This document shows positions 9,083-25,767 of a DNA stretch of 64,000 nt, piece after piece. The position numbers and the translations under genes are program-made. Every line of letters begins with the position of its first letter. Positions within the stretch are counted from its first letter, which is position 1. Under the pieces are notes generated by a model. The model worked only from the letters and a program-made list of their open reading frames with translations, was not told where the DNA came from and did not search any database. The DNA comes from an uncultured Marinoscillum sp. (GTDB lineage: Bacteria > Bacteroidota > Bacteroidia > Cytophagales > MED-G16). The DNA is taken from contig CABZXU010000001.1 of NCBI GenBank assembly GCA_902529805.1, positions 126,084-190,083 of the forward strand, written 5' to 3'.

Positions 9083-10441
9083 TTATTGCTTAACTATAGA
9101 TGGATCAATTAAATCTATATTAGATAAAACATAATTCCCAACCAATTCACCTTGTTTTACTCCATTGTAAATTGCAGGCATGTAATGAATTCCACCATAA
9201 ATTCTACTTATTGCAGCTTCATCTGAAGCATCTAAAAATGAATTAAATTCTCTAGAAGGAAGGCCATATTCAATTTCAGATGTGTCTAAAAATTTAAAAT
9301 TTTCTCCTAAGATTTCAGTTAAAATAACAGCAGCTGACCTTGATATAACACTATGGCCCGATGTGTATTCAGGAAAAGGAGGGGTTTGTAAAAAAGGAAT
9401 CCAATCTTCATCGATATATTCATTTATTACTGTTTCTGGTCTTATTAAAATACTTCTCCACTTTTCATCCCAACAAGCTATGAATGCATCAAATAAGCCA
9501 ATTGAAACTTTTGCATAAGCAGCAATAGTTTCAATCATATTGAGATTAGCTTTTTGAGTAACTATAGATGTAATTCCAATCCAATGACCTCCTGGAGTTA
9601 TTTTTTTTGTTGCAAACATAGCATGACCTTTGTGGTGAGATACATATGGATTACAATCCCAAAAGCTTGCAATTTCTTTTTGCTCCTCGGTAAGATTATT
9701 TGTAATTTCATATACTTCTATAACCTCTTCATAAAATTTACTTTTTTTGTTCATATTAAACTCAGTAGGTGGAGAAACCAAAAATTGATTAGAAGAATCT
9801 AAAACAAATGTTCTTATTCTATTCCAATGAGGTTCTATTCCTTCCATATAATCAGGAGGTGTTGGTTTCCAAGACTCTTTATCTCTTTCAATCGTATATT
9901 TTGGATAAGACCTTGTCTGTTTGTAATTATCTTTACCAGCCCAACTAATTATATGATTAGCAACCAGCTCACCATATTCTAATGATCTATTATATATATC
10001 ATTAGGAATTCCCTTAGACTTTATTTCTAAATATAAATTTGTTTGAAAACCTTCCATTTGATCTTCAGAAAAAATTAAATCTTTTCCTACTATTAAAAAA
10101 GCATGAATGCTTGCCAAAGGAAATGAATATTCAAACTTCTGATCAGGTTTTGGAATATTGTCAAGTTGACTTAATTGACCAGCAAAAGATTTATATTCTA
10201 AGTAATCATTTATTAATACTTCGTAAGCAGCAATAGTGGGGTAAGCATAAATTCTAGAAGCAACAGGTGGTGAAAAAATATCATAAACAATAATATCAGA
10301 AAGTTTTTTCATCGCCTGATGAAAAAGAATTGGATTGTTATAGTAATTTATATTTTCACGATACCTTTTATCATTTACTGAACAACTTAAATATGAAAAT
10401 AAAAAAACTACATTAAAAAAAACAAACTTAATTGCTCTCAT
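9083..10441 (-). CDS. PAP2-superfamily lipoprotein (vanadium haloperoxidase / acid phosphatase-like)
   Basis: 452 aa with lipobox YLSC and PAP2 catalytic motifs YTSGHSVISR and RIYGGIHY. It overlaps the upstream VCBS gene by 4 nt. Confidence 0.7.
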   Translation of the reverse strand: MRAIKFVFFNVVFLFSYLSCSVNDKRYRENINYYNNPILFHQAMKKLSDIIVYDIFSPPVASRIYAYPTIAAYEVLINDYLEYKSFAGQLSQLDNIPKPDQKFEYSFPLASIHAFLIVGKDLIFSEDQMEGFQTNLYLEIKSKGIPNDIYNRSLEYGELVANHIISWAGKDNYKQTRSYPKYTIERDKESWKPTPPDYMEGIEPHWNRIRTFVLDSSNQFLVSPPTEFNMNKKSKFYEEVIEVYEITNNLTEEQKEIASFWDCNPYVSHHKGHAMFATKKITPGGHWIGITSIVTQKANLNMIETIAAYAKVSIGLFDAFIACWDEKWRSILIRPETVINEYIDEDWIPFLQTPPFPEYTSGHSVISRSAAVILTEILGENFKFLDTSEIEYGLPSREFNSFLDASDEAAISRIYGGIHYMPAIYNGVKQGELVGNYVLSNIDLIDPSIVKQ

Positions 10442-13400
10442 AAACTATTTAACTTGTAAAAATTTAACTCATTATCATTTACACCTAGTACAAATTTAGT
10501 TTTATTTTTATCCAAGTAAAACATTTTTTTTATTTCTCCTGTTACATTCAATCCACTTTTTTTTTGATCAACATAATCAAATGTCCCATCACCATTTCCT
10601 TTGAGGAGAATCCCATGATTTGCATCAAAAGAACCAAAGTATGTTGAAACAAAGTTTTTATTTCCAAAAATCAATAAATCTAATTTATTATCAGAATTAA
10701 AATCACAAGTTTCTATTACAGATATAGGTGAAGACTGTGCTATAATTGGTAATGGTTTTGCATCAAATTTTTTTCCATTGTTAAGAAAAACAAATGATTG
10801 AAATTCATTAGCAAATAATATTTTAGAATTATCTAACTGAGATTTTGAAAAAATACCCTTTATTTCTTGACCAGCAAAATTTTTAAAATATAAAAATTTT
10901 CTTTTTAAATAGTTTAATTGTTTTGTTATTTCATCTCTATCTGCCAAAGGATATTCTTTTCCATTTCTGATATAAGATACTATTTGCTCAAAGCTTTCAT
11001 TATTATCAAAATCATTGATATACATTTTAACTGGAAAGTTTACAGAAGGTTTAAATTTTATATTTAATCCGATATTTCCAGCGATTAAATCCATTAAACC
11101 ATCATTATTAACATCTGCTGATTTAATAGAAAACCACCAACCATTTTTATTTAAGCTGTAATTTTTATTATCCTCTATTAAAGAACCTTGAATGTTTTTA
11201 TAAAATTTTATATCAGACCAATCACCACATACAAAAAGATCCATCCATCCATCATTATCTATATCAACCCATGTTGCATCAGTAACCATTCCTTGATTTT
11301 CAAAAGTAATTTTATCATTTATCCAGAACTTTCCACTTCCATCATTTTCTAACAAATAATGTTTTGGTGGGAATCCATATTTTCCAGGAATACTTCTACC
11401 TCCTAAAAATAAATCTACATCTCCATCATTATCAAAATCAGAAGCCCTAACAATAGATCCATTTTGATAAATTTCGGGAAGGGAAAATGTATCTAATTCA
11501 TAAATTCCTTTATCATTTAAAATATATAATCTATCTCTTATACTTTTATACCTTAAAGGAAACTCATTACCGCCACTTACAACATATAAATCTAGATCCT
11601 TATCATTATCAGCATCAAAAAATAAAGCATCTACATCCTCCGACAAAGAATCATTATAGATTTCATGATTGTGAACCAAGCTAAAATTTCCATTATCAGA
11701 TCCCATAAAAATTCTTGATTTATTAAAAGAGGATGATCCTAAAAATATATCTTGGAAACCATCTAAATTAATATCAGCAACAGCAAGAGCTGGGCCTTCA
11801 TTGGATAGCATATATGGCATTAATGGTTCTCTATTAAAATCATTAAAAATATTTTCTTTATGGAAAATTTTTGGAGTTATTTTTTCAGTATAATCATTGA
11901 AAATAGGAATTTTACTTTTATGTTTAATTTTATTTTTTGACCTAGCATCTTTTTCATATAAATTCAAAATTTTATTTCCTTTTATTGAATATAATTTTTG
12001 GGCTTTACCTGAAGGCCATTGAACAAGCATTGAATCTATAACCTCATAGTTATTTAAACCAAAAACCAACCCAGGTGAAGTTGAAGACAAAAAACCTTTA
12101 TTAGCAAAATTTTCTTTATACAAAATTTTATTATCTGACCAAATAGTAACTTTTGATCCAATTCCATTTTTATTTAACTTATCACCAATAAAATTTATTG
12201 AAATAAAATTTCTTTCTGGATAAAATTCATTTGATCGATTTGAATAAATTTTTGCTTTTGAATTTATATTATTTAATATTAAATCTAGATCACCATCATT
12301 ATCGAGATCTGAATAAGTAGCCCCATTTGAATACCCCTCAAAGTCCAACCCCCAATTTTCACTTTCATCAGTAAAATTCAAATTACTATTATTTCTGAAA
12401 AGATAATTTGATACTTTTCCATCTGGCATTTGATCTATTAATTCTAGATTTGTTAGTTTAGTTTTATTATTTAAATTTCCGCTTATTTGATTATTTGAAA
12501 TAAAATTGATATAGTCCATATCATTAGGACGCTTTAAAATTCCATTAGAAATAAAAATATCATTCAAGCCATCTAAATCAAAATCTTGAATAAGTGTTGA
12601 CCAGCTCCAATCAGTTGCATGAATCCCTGTCAATTGAGCAATTTCAGCAAAATTATTGTTACCTAAATTTAATTGTAATGTATTTCTAGTAAACTGTTTG
12701 TTATAGCCAAACTCTAATTTCATCTTATATATCTCATATGAATCTTCACCGGCTGAACTTTTTAAAACAATTTCATCAGAAGGCAACATATCTAAAACTA
12801 AAATATCTAATAAACCATCATTATTTACATCTCCAATATCATTACCCATTGAAAATCTAGAGGTATGCCTTATATAGTCCTCTAAACTTTCGGAAAAAGT
12901 ACCGTCACAATTATTTATGTATAAATAGTCGTTTTCTCTAAAATCATTAGATATATAAATATCATCACACCCATCATTATTTATATCAGAAATCGATACA
13001 CCTAAACCATATCCTATGTTACTACCGAGTATTCCAGAACTTTCAGAAACATCAGTAAAAAAAGATTTACCATTTACAATATCATGCCTAAAAAGTTTAT
13101 CGCCGGATTTTAAATCTCTTTGAAATCTAATTTTTGAATTTCCATATGTAATTTCAGAATGAATAGAATGATTTAATAAGTACATATCTAAATCTCCATC
13201 TTTATCATAATCAAAAAAAGCAGAATGAGTAGAAAAACCCTCGAAATCTAAACCATAATCTTGTGCCATTTCAGTGAAGGTTAGATCCTTATTGTTTATG
13301 TATAATTGATTTTTTCCATTTATATTCTTATAACCGCCTAAACGGTTTTGATAAATATCTAAATACCCATCTCCATTAATATCGATCATTACAACCCCTG

Positions 13401-25532: not shown

Positions 25533-25767
25533 AGTTTGCTTTAATTTGTTATACATATATTTATTAACAATCAATTATTTACTGAATGGGATATAAAAAA
25601 CCCAAATGCGCATAATATTTAGATTGTCGACAATTTTAATTAAGTTAACTGACACAAAAATGCCACATTTTTATATAAAACAAAATAATATATAAGAAAA
25701 TTTTAACATTAGTTTAACATTAAAAAAACATAGAATTTAAATTAAAATTGAAATCGGATAGTGATTT

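Follow-up and report, generated by a model that had tools for sequence, protein, structure and literature searches.

The Bacteroidota take up polymers chiefly through loci with a tandem susC/susD gene pair (SusCD loci), and nearly all of those that have been studied are built around glycosidases. The 64,000 nucleotides of contig CABZXU010000001.1 from an uncultured Marinoscillum sp. that are analyzed here (assembly GCA_902529805.1, positions 126,084 to 190,083; "the window" below) carry on their minus strand, at 9083-25574, a locus of this layout in which the enzymes are replaced by three conserved integrin-like propellers, and the question it raises is what a SusC/SusD transporter serves in such company. 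A preliminary description, made from the sequence alone, listed there susC and susD, three genes for giant lipoproteins (called G3, G2 and G1 here, in the order in which they are read), a small lipoprotein gene between G3 and G2, and a last gene for a PAP2-superfamily lipoprotein; our open reading frame (ORF) calls agree exactly with its gene list and coordinates (Table 1). It also held that loci combining SusCD with ASPIC/UnbV proteins are functionally uncharacterized, and a literature search found no functional study of them. The locus is a member of an uncharacterized, widespread and enzyme-poor SusCD locus type, and this type has a specific and previously unexploited link to the vanadium iodoperoxidases (VIPOs).

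The link lies in the last gene. The preliminary description reported SGHS and GGIHY motifs in its product and did not choose between a haloperoxidase and a phosphatase. Both motifs are present and the PAP2 Pfam match lies just above the cut-off, and full-length homology to Zobellia galactanivorans Zg-VIPO1 (PDB 4CIT/4USZ), together with an intact vanadate site, resolves the ambiguity, as far as homology can, in favor of a vanadium-dependent haloperoxidase (VHPO). A phmmer search of the PDB finds the Zobellia enzyme at E 1e-148; residues 13-447 of the query align with chain residues 19-452 of 4CIT, the N-terminal helical domain included, and are 53% identical to it over 428 aligned positions. 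The VHPO motifs WDEKWRSILIRP, FPEYTSGH, SRIYGGIH and CNPY are all present, and the vanadate-site motifs W..K......RP, SGH and SR..GG.H are conserved in the window protein and in all 26 of the homologs found in related loci; as exceptions among these 26, seven have His for Tyr (FPE[YH]TSGH) and one, from a frameshifted contig, has Leu for Pro (FLEYTSGH). The vanadate ligands of Zg-VIPO1 (Lys324, Arg331, Ser358-Gly359-His360, Arg410 and His416, with a covalent His among them) and its second-sphere residues (Trp321, Phe353 and Tyr263), as reportedly numbered in Fournier 2014 (the chain index minus 8), are all identical in the alignment. More than 8000 homologs of the window protein were found; they carry PF22778 (VCPO_2nd) and PF01569, and those that are named bear the NCBI title "vanadium-dependent haloperoxidase". 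The assignment to the VIPO family has as much support as sequence can give. The window enzyme is predicted to carry out vanadate-dependent oxidation of iodide. In the Zobellia enzyme access to the active site is restricted, as it is in selective bacterial chloroperoxidases (PMC11871015, 2025).

The VHPO gene is strongly tied to a G gene, with or without SusCD. A G gene lies directly upstream of it in seven of seven genome contexts (L001, L002, L003, L085, L086, L087 and the window; L numbers are our locus designations), and SusCD is absent from two of these, Chondrinema litorale (L002) and L087, in which one G gene accompanies the VHPO gene. Metagenomes scanned with an alignment of VHPO sequences gave at least 583 relatives, of which the best 80 were used; 59 of these have at least 1.5 kb of upstream sequence, and in 34 of the 59 the gene immediately upstream is a G gene, while in 44 a G gene lies within three ORFs. 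Several other metagenomic VHPO genes adjoin SusC, SusD or LacI genes.

The linkage is also found in Z. galactanivorans. There the ASPIC/UnbV genes ZGAL_1259-1261 precede ZGAL_1262, and ZGAL_2087, another ASPIC/UnbV gene, precedes ZGAL_2088; both of the following genes are annotated as vanadium-dependent haloperoxidases (PMC5613140, supplement). Expression of ZGAL_1260-1262 covaries and is highest on glucose (PMC5613140). ZGAL_1258-1262 differ from the window locus in having no SusCD and no small lipoprotein, with a Na/solute symporter gene upstream instead. We take ZGAL_1262 to be the VIPO1 and ZGAL_2088 to be the VIPO2 of the 2014 paper, names that the supplement does not use; if this is right, the crystallized Zobellia enzyme is itself encoded behind three propeller genes. 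The linkage between VHPO and ASPIC genes is not discussed in the literature that we found; Fournier 2014 and Barbeyron 2016 may mention the Zobellia neighborhood.

How far the rest of the locus is shared was determined by a family scan that used an alignment of the small lipoprotein as query and covered each GTDB species by one genome. It yielded 248 relatives. Of these, 79 loci were taken and annotated by our own ORF calls and by phmmer comparison with the proteins of the window, and 76 of them have a called small gene. Among the 76, a G gene lies to the left of the small gene in 60 and to its right in 62; both SusC and SusD are present in 48, in the order SusC-SusD-G-small-G(-G), most of the others being short contigs cut at an edge. 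The core order SusC-SusD-G3-small-G2(-G1) recurs in dozens of Bacteroidota species, so the arrangement is not a chance layout. Its carriers include Cytophagales, Saprospiraceae, Chitinophagales (Chitinophaga japonensis, Segetibacter and Ferruginibacter), Algoriphagus, Winogradskyella, Mucilaginibacter and one Rikenellaceae metagenome-assembled genome (MAG), and they come from the sea, lakes, soil and sludge; close homologs are also present in Tara Oceans contigs.

Around this core the gene content varies. The haloperoxidase is an accessory gene of the locus family: it is found in 23 of the 79 loci and absent from 56, which retain SusCD and the G proteins. Other accessory genes encode a DUF6923/CHU_C protein secreted by the type IX secretion system (T9SS; 13 of the 79 loci), GlpK (10), a LacI regulator that is divergent and upstream (8), an aspartyl-protease/PDZ protein, also upstream (7), a GMC oxidoreductase, an SSF symporter and GalE (5 each, all five symporters being accompanied by VHPO), GH65 (3), and GH37 trehalase, GH127 and GH32 (2 each). 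In several loci the GH65 gene stands between the last G gene and the VHPO gene (L065, L144, L154, L166) or the trehalase gene behind the VHPO gene (L001, L004/L023, L018, L165). The statement in the preliminary description that the locus has no glycoside hydrolase (GH) thus holds for this Marinoscillaceae lineage and fails for the locus family, in which GH65, GH37, GH32 and GH127 occur elsewhere. These glycosidases are exo-acting on small α-glucosides, fructosides and arabinofuranosides. Taken with the LacI regulators, the symporters of sugar type and the glycerol genes, they are a loose indication that the end products are small sugars or polyols. The SSF symporter was considered as an iodide carrier and rejected, as it has no PDB match and the NCBIfam model that it matches best, named as a solute:sodium symporter, is of the YidK type, whose family is generally held to transport sugars. 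Likewise, the GMC oxidoreductase was rejected as a source of H2O2, its nearest solved relatives being FAD glucose and fructose dehydrogenases and not oxidases. In 13 loci without VHPO, the slot after G2 holds a protein of about 650 amino acids that combines DUF6923 repeats with a T9SS sorting domain of the CHU_C/type B kind.

Each giant consists of a CRTAC1-like FG-GAP propeller, a UnbV_ASPIC domain and a second propeller. All three match FG-GAP_3 (PF13517) at E 1e-61 to 1e-66 and UnbV_ASPIC (PF07593) at E 6e-15 to 7e-21, and Pfam returned no other kind of domain. The AlphaFold2 model of G3 is all-β (pLDDT 78, pTM 0.79) and predicts an N-terminal propeller, a UnbV_ASPIC sandwich at residues ~505-595 and a second propeller at ~600-1103. 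Its first Foldseek match in the PDB is murine CRTAC1 (9ETN; E 1e-25, TM 0.72 on the target), followed by generic multi-propeller proteins (DDB1) and integrins; a profile of 20 homologs searched against all PDB sequences finds only CRTAC1 (E 3e-20) and integrin α chains, and CRTAC1 is the sole PDB sequence match of G1. The likeness to CRTAC1 lies in the N-terminal half of the giants, where an FG-GAP propeller with DxDxDG calcium loops is followed by UnbV_ASPIC. The giants differ from it in being lipoproteins with a second propeller of ~450 residues, and sequence identity is 16%; animal CRTAC1 has a single propeller and a C-terminal EGF-like domain, for which Pfam finds no match in the giants. 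Since the biochemical function of CRTAC1 itself is unclear, this match explains little of their role.

The repeats were first described as of the calcium-binding, DxDxDG-like type, and the counts accord with this: motifs of the form D.[DN].[DN]G, presumptive calcium sites, number 10 in G3, 8 in G2 and 11 in G1, Asp and Asn make up ~21% of each protein, and the motifs are conserved across 150 homologs. In the alignment of these 150 full-length proteins the conserved positions are mostly the D, N and G of the calcium loops, and no His/Cys cluster resembling a metal center is among them. No hidden catalytic domain, the finding that the preliminary description had set beforehand as contrary to its view of the locus, was detected in the giants by whole-model Foldseek comparison or by the profile search against the PDB, and no enzyme relative appears among the sequence-profile matches or the 50 best fold matches listed. 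With CRTAC1 and integrins as relatives and conservation mostly in the calcium loops, the evidence favors propellers that bind rather than catalyze. G2 is 51% and G1 43% identical to G3, and the three do share one architecture, as their earlier designation as paralogs suggested; they are not recent duplicates, however, but ancient, distinct orthogroups in fixed order. Even in distant families the G3-, G2- and G1-type proteins stand in the same positions relative to one another, and this implies that they have three functions, none of them redundant.

The small lipoprotein, the marker of the family, has no Pfam or NCBIfam match. Its AlphaFold2 model (pLDDT 91) has two α+β repeats, and no solved fold matches it at E<0.01 (the best Foldseek match in the PDB has E 0.011, with TM at most 0.3); UTRA-, BLIP- and TBP-like folds were considered and set aside, as they share a vague two-repeat-sheet resemblance and no PDB match passes E 0.01. 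The family comprises 686 representative clusters at E<=1e-3 in a library of 1.84 billion proteins, and its nearest members, 90-93% identical, are from Marinoscillum MAGs and single-amplified genomes (Cytophagales). In Catalimonadaceae bacterium JC749 (L037) the small and G2-type genes are duplicated, giving the order SusC-SusD-G-small-G-small-G, and because they are duplicated together the small lipoprotein may work pairwise with the G2-type propeller.

SusC scores 642.8 bits against TIGR04056 (cut-off 368) and has CarbopepD_reg_2, Plug and TonB_dep_Rec_b-barrel domains; the domain scan finds no STN domain, as had been claimed, and the nearest solved structures are 8AA4/9SJE (E 8e-86). Its true start is likely an ATG near 25532 rather than the TTG at 25574. 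SusD matches PF07980 at E 1e-27 and PF14322 at E 9e-16, with 9SJE_B and 3CK7 (the starch SusD) as nearest solved homologs. The pair is adjacent, as the susC-like and susD-like genes of a polysaccharide utilization locus (PUL) are in the sense of PULDB; the other usual components of a PUL, at least one carbohydrate-active enzyme (CAZyme) in the same gene string and a dedicated regulator, are missing, the nearest CAZyme gene being a divergent one at 26491. The absence of any CAZyme, sulfatase, peptidase or regulator gene from 9083 to 25574 was also noted in the preliminary description, and domain scans of the ORFs likewise find no GH, polysaccharide lyase or carbohydrate esterase domain there. 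No regulator family (HTCS, ECF/anti-sigma, SusR, LacI and others) is represented among the window ORFs scanned, tblastn finds no LacI homolog in the window, and GMC, SSF, GH65, galK and galE are absent from it. The PUL-like layout described earlier, a SusCD pair with downstream lipoprotein genes and no CAZyme, regulator or STN domain inside, is therefore real.

The genes are closely packed: susC and susD are separated by 19 nt and G2 and G1 by 7 nt, and the 4-nt overlaps reported at 17589-17592, 17026-17029 and 10438-10441 follow from the ORF coordinates. The terminator hairpin reported after susD is also present (12-bp stem, 4-nt loop and T-run). Only ~30 nt lie between it and the start of G3, which leaves no room for a promoter, so it probably acts as an attenuator and G3 and the genes behind it are probably expressed by read-through. 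Rfam finds no RNA element in the locus, and a sigma-70 promoter scan was uninformative (103 sites against 121 expected). As in the levan and dextran SusCD utilisomes (PDB 8AA4, 6ZAZ), tandem susC/susD genes are followed by an attenuator-like hairpin and by lipoprotein genes; unlike those systems, the unit has no CAZyme and no hybrid two-component system, extracytoplasmic function sigma factor or other regulator, and where they use a surface glycan-binding protein and a glycosidase it has three 1100-residue CRTAC1-like propellers and a haloperoxidase. By eye, all five products downstream of susD begin with a hydrophobic stretch that ends in a lipobox Cys, in agreement with the preliminary description, and so does SusD. 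Acidic residues at +3 to +5 after this Cys are moderately frequent in the G proteins and VHPO (D/E fraction 0.3-0.6), weak in the small lipoprotein and strong in SusD, whose run from the lipobox Cys, C-T-N-L-D-E-E, is kept in 44 orthologs; we infer that the lipoproteins may be exposed on the surface of the outer membrane. Window G+C is ~28%, and susC and susD stand at 0.37 against 0.26-0.30 in the genes after susD. Gene transfer was considered as the cause of this difference and rejected; the excess sits at codon positions 1 (0.48-0.50) and 2 (0.41-0.42), position 3 being only slightly higher, and therefore reflects amino acid composition and not foreign origin.

Table 1. Coordinates of the locus, its flanks and other features; positions refer to the window except where a locus designation is given
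Feature	Position	Strand	Remarks
susC	22578-25574	minus	998 aa from TTG start; TIGR04056 and Pfam matches
susD	20993-22558	minus	SusD-like lipoprotein; PF07980 and PF14322
Intrinsic-terminator-like hairpin	20957-20930	minus	In the susD/G3 interval
G3	17589-20900	minus	1103 aa; lipoprotein, FG-GAP/UnbV_ASPIC
Small lipoprotein	17026-17592	minus	188 aa
G2	13739-17029	minus	1096 aa; lipoprotein, architecture as G3
G1	10438-13731	minus	1097 aa; lipoprotein, architecture as G3
VHPO	9083-10441	minus	452 aa; lipoprotein, PAP2 fold, relative of Zobellia Zg-VIPO1
glpK	7590-9071	minus	Starts 11 nt behind the VHPO gene
glpD	6004-7605	minus	Overlaps glpK
GDPD lipoprotein	3771-4649	minus	Behind glpD
SnoaL-like lipoprotein	25820-26323	minus	Directly upstream of susC
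SnoaL-gene terminator hairpin	25798-25774	minus	5' limit of the susC transcription unit
GH20 β-hexosaminidase	26491-28329	plus	PF00728, E 9e-122; nearest CAZyme
16S rRNA gene, 5' half	1-729	minus	684 bits
SAM-I/IV riboswitch	28358-28447	plus	Upstream of metK; 45 bits, gathering score 41
SpoIIE protein and cyclase	39458-44346		Convergent genes
SnoaL-ABM fusion protein	48191-48979	plus
Seven consecutive ORFs	51060-56504	plus	228-258 aa each
DUF6923 protein	13934-15892 (L022)		Also in L021, L026, L033, L036, L038, L040, L043, L044, L054, L061, L074, L080
Transporter beside VHPO	6267-7634 (L157)
Transporter beside VHPO	6377-7966 (L140)
Transporter beside VHPO	6420-7865 (L129)
Transporter beside VHPO	6351-7655 (L130)
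Transporter beside VHPO	3064-4680 (L114)
Transporter beside VHPO	11430-13115 (L085)

The preliminary description ended the unit at the PAP2 gene and did not mention glpK; the start of the unit stands, and in this clade its end probably lies farther on, in glpK-glpD. Behind glpD on the same strand are genes for a MIP channel, the GDPD lipoprotein and a PfkB kinase. The order VHPO-glpK-glpD is found in L005-L017, L029 and L088-L100 and is absent in other clades, so that glpK-glpD is probably a clade-specific downstream extension, and the glp genes, lying behind VHPO mainly in one clade, were rejected as a universal clue to the substrate. Galactosylglycerol, suggested by galK-galE upstream and glpK-glpD downstream in L005 and L009-L015, is no more than a loose lead, the window having neither galK nor galE. 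The window GlpD matches the Bacillus-type GlpD 3DA1 at E 9e-141, the streptococcal GlpO 2RGH at E 2e-92 and E. coli GlpD at E 2e-47; it is possible that it is an H2O2-forming α-glycerophosphate oxidase encoded beside the haloperoxidase gene. On the other side, the SnoaL-like neighbor upstream of susC is kept in L006-L008, with two copies in L006. The GH20 gene, which is absent from the preliminary description, is divergent and ~0.9 kb upstream of susC; its tie to the locus is proximity alone, and a GH20 gene is also nearby in L005.

What, then, might the assembled locus do? We tentatively read the propellers as a platform that captures substrate for SusCD and is coupled to halide oxidation at the cell surface, a reading that we hold with less than even confidence. 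A promoter downstream of the SnoaL terminator would drive susC-susD, and the hairpin after susD would let a fraction of the transcripts through into G3-small-G2-G1-VHPO and, here, also into glpK-glpD; the five genes from G3 to VHPO would be translationally coupled. Their products would be anchored in the outer membrane and form a complex in which G3, G2 and G1 act as non-redundant, integrin-like, calcium-stabilized capture subunits and thereby as counterparts of the utilisomes' surface glycan-binding proteins, perhaps organized by the small lipoprotein. These subunits would hold a ligand at SusCD, which would import it with TonB energy, and at the same site VHPO would make hypohalite from H2O2 and iodide (or another halide), which would oxidize or halogenate the material held by the propellers, or the reaction might serve to consume H2O2 there. 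The small sugars or polyols released would be broken down by lineage-specific neighbors, the glycerol genes here and GH65, GH37, GH32 or the sugar dehydrogenase elsewhere. In most loci the partner of the G proteins is a transporter, elsewhere it is a haloperoxidase, and in the window both are present; a ligand-holding platform is the simplest role common to all.

Several points weigh against this capture reading. G-VHPO pairs also occur without SusCD (Zobellia, L002 and L087), and the haloperoxidase link may therefore be unrelated to import. The accessory glycosidases differ in kind (α-glucoside, β-fructoside and β-L-arabinofuranoside), so no single substrate is indicated, and some of them may belong to neighboring operons. 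Nor was a demonstrated substrate found for the locus type; we found no experiments on any member of the locus family in the literature, and to our knowledge none of the bacterial CRTAC1-like proteins has a known ligand. Despite the fold search, it is possible that the propellers are enzymes of a family not yet known. Finally, none of six algal polysaccharides (agar, porphyran, laminarin, alginate and two carrageenans) induces ZGAL_1260-1262 in Zobellia (PMC5613140).

The G-VHPO pairs that lack SusCD would suit the main alternative, itself rather unlikely, in which a calcium-dependent surface unit of G protein and VHPO oxidizes iodide to hypoiodite (HOI) for uptake, accumulation or defense against peroxide or halogens, SusCD and a nearby inner-membrane transporter import the product, and the adjoining sugar or glycerol catabolism feeds H2O2-forming oxidases. 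The closest characterized relative of the VHPO, 4CIT, is iodide-specific by name, Zobellia accumulates iodine and expresses ZGAL_1260-1262 most highly on glucose, and the window GlpD is nearer to the GlpO type than to E. coli GlpD. In Arenibacter C-21, H2O2-dependent iodine uptake needs glucose, O2 and Ca2+, the genome has five VIPO homologs, and a model of glucose oxidase and haloperoxidase has been proposed (Amachi et al. 2007, as summarized in PMC5064120). That strain is also a member of the Bacteroidota, and its need for Ca2+ is at least compatible with calcium-binding partners such as the G proteins with their 8-11 motifs each. In the strain the phenotype is known without a linked gene. 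A secondary transporter gene directly adjoins the VHPO gene in 30 of 103 loci and, counting MIP, lies within a few genes of it in 50 of the 103; the adjoining transporters belong to differing families (MFS, SSF, Na_sulph_symp/DASS and APC). L051 has a GMC oxidoreductase and VHPO together, yet the GMC enzyme is nearest to membrane sugar dehydrogenases, not to H2O2-forming oxidases, and the SSF transporter is nearest to the YidK-type model. Such a halide module is further at odds with the 56 loci that do without VHPO and keep SusCD and the G proteins, with the presence of VHPO loci in iodide-poor freshwater and soil taxa (Algoriphagus lacus, Lake Mendota Algoriphagus and Ohtaekwangia), and with the fact that HOI needs no 1000-residue TonB-dependent pore.

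If the giants were themselves glycan-cleaving enzymes of a family outside CAZy, the locus would be a conventional PUL in disguise and the haloperoxidase a peripheral stress enzyme. Beta-propellers host several GH and polysaccharide lyase families, three non-redundant paralogs would suit a multi-step depolymerization, and LacI regulators and exo-glycosidases recur as neighbors; moreover, the alignment of 150 G proteins has conserved polar positions outside the calcium loops (E265, E280, Q345, R348, N349, TDWSW at 372-376, H624, E626 and E697). We nevertheless consider this unlikely, as the sequence and structure relatives are only CRTAC1, integrins and DDB1-type propellers (among the 50 best fold matches listed). 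A Zobellia locus is also instructive here: ZGAL_158 (TonB-dependent receptor), ZGAL_159 (SusD), ZGAL_160 (ASPIC/UnbV), ZGAL_162 (GH43) and ZGAL_164 (GH10) place a single propeller protein in a conventional PUL, and ZGAL_160 is listed as responsive to kappa-carrageenan. Compared by annotation, it resembles the window locus in that a SusCD pair is directly followed by an ASPIC/UnbV FG-GAP protein, and it differs in having one such protein rather than three, xylan-type glycosidases, a sugar transporter and no haloperoxidase. Its propeller protein thus sits in a PUL already equipped with GH10 and GH43, which argues against a cleaving role, and an ASPIC/UnbV protein in such a classical PUL speaks for the capture reading.

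A more specific form of the capture reading, which we regard as distinctly improbable, is that the propellers hold refractory or aromatic-rich organic matter, or glycoconjugates, to which an iodoperoxidase with a shielded active site would deliver hypoiodite that loosens or tags them for import by SusCD. The system would then play, by way of halogen, the part that oxidative enzymes play in some PULs, and the sugar or glycerol genes would supply or consume H2O2.

It is very improbable that the propellers are adhesins for particles or algal surfaces, with the haloperoxidase cross-linking phenolic or tyrosine groups, a role that has been proposed in the adhesives of algae, and SusCD merely adjacent. 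The integrin/CRTAC1 fold and the T9SS-secreted DUF6923 protein of VHPO-less variants would agree with this, and calcium-binding repeats are typical of adhesins (PMC2668756). However, the SusC-SusD-G-small-G order is strictly kept in families and habitats far removed from one another, and the propeller genes read on from susD, which speaks for a single functional unit rather than adhesion genes with a bystander SusCD; a lipoprotein anchor keeps the propellers at the membrane, not extended outward.

Least credible of all is organophosphate scavenging, in which the PAP2 protein would be an acid phosphatase (a possible activity, to judge from its residues, because PAP2 phosphatases and VHPOs use the same anion-binding site) and would harvest glycerophospho-polymers (teichoic-acid-like or lipid head groups) with GDPD, glpK, glpD and MIP: the PAP2 Pfam match, the closeness of glpK and the GDPD, MIP and PfkB genes on the same strand would suit it, but the protein matches a proven haloperoxidase from end to end, N-terminal helical domain included, at 53% identity, and it is only in the Marinoscillaceae and a few further clades that glp genes lie behind VHPO, the place being taken elsewhere by trehalase, an MFS/SSF transporter or nothing.

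Some other features of the window were noted in passing. A second SnoaL-like protein is fused to an ABM monooxygenase domain. The called GTG start of metK at 28417 overlaps the SAM-I/IV riboswitch, so the real start is probably a later one. A 1105-amino-acid protein with a C-terminal SpoIIE (PP2C phosphatase) domain and a convergent PAS-adenylate/guanylate cyclase make up a signaling pair unrelated to the locus. Seven consecutive ORFs with signal-peptide-like starts, no Pfam match and 12-24% mutual identity look like a tandem array of divergent secreted paralogs. The window also has the 5' half of a bacterial 16S rRNA gene, which is cut off by its edge.

The tight and repeated linkage of bacterial vanadium iodoperoxidases to CRTAC1-like proteins gives the question of their biological role a concrete context that can be tested, including in the genetically tractable Zobellia. 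The giants likewise offer bacterial models for the poorly understood CRTAC1 fold. The linkage could also bear on which organisms oxidize iodide in surface waters; if halogen-based oxidative capture were true, abundant pelagic and freshwater Bacteroidota would be an unrecognized biological source of iodide oxidation and organo-iodine.

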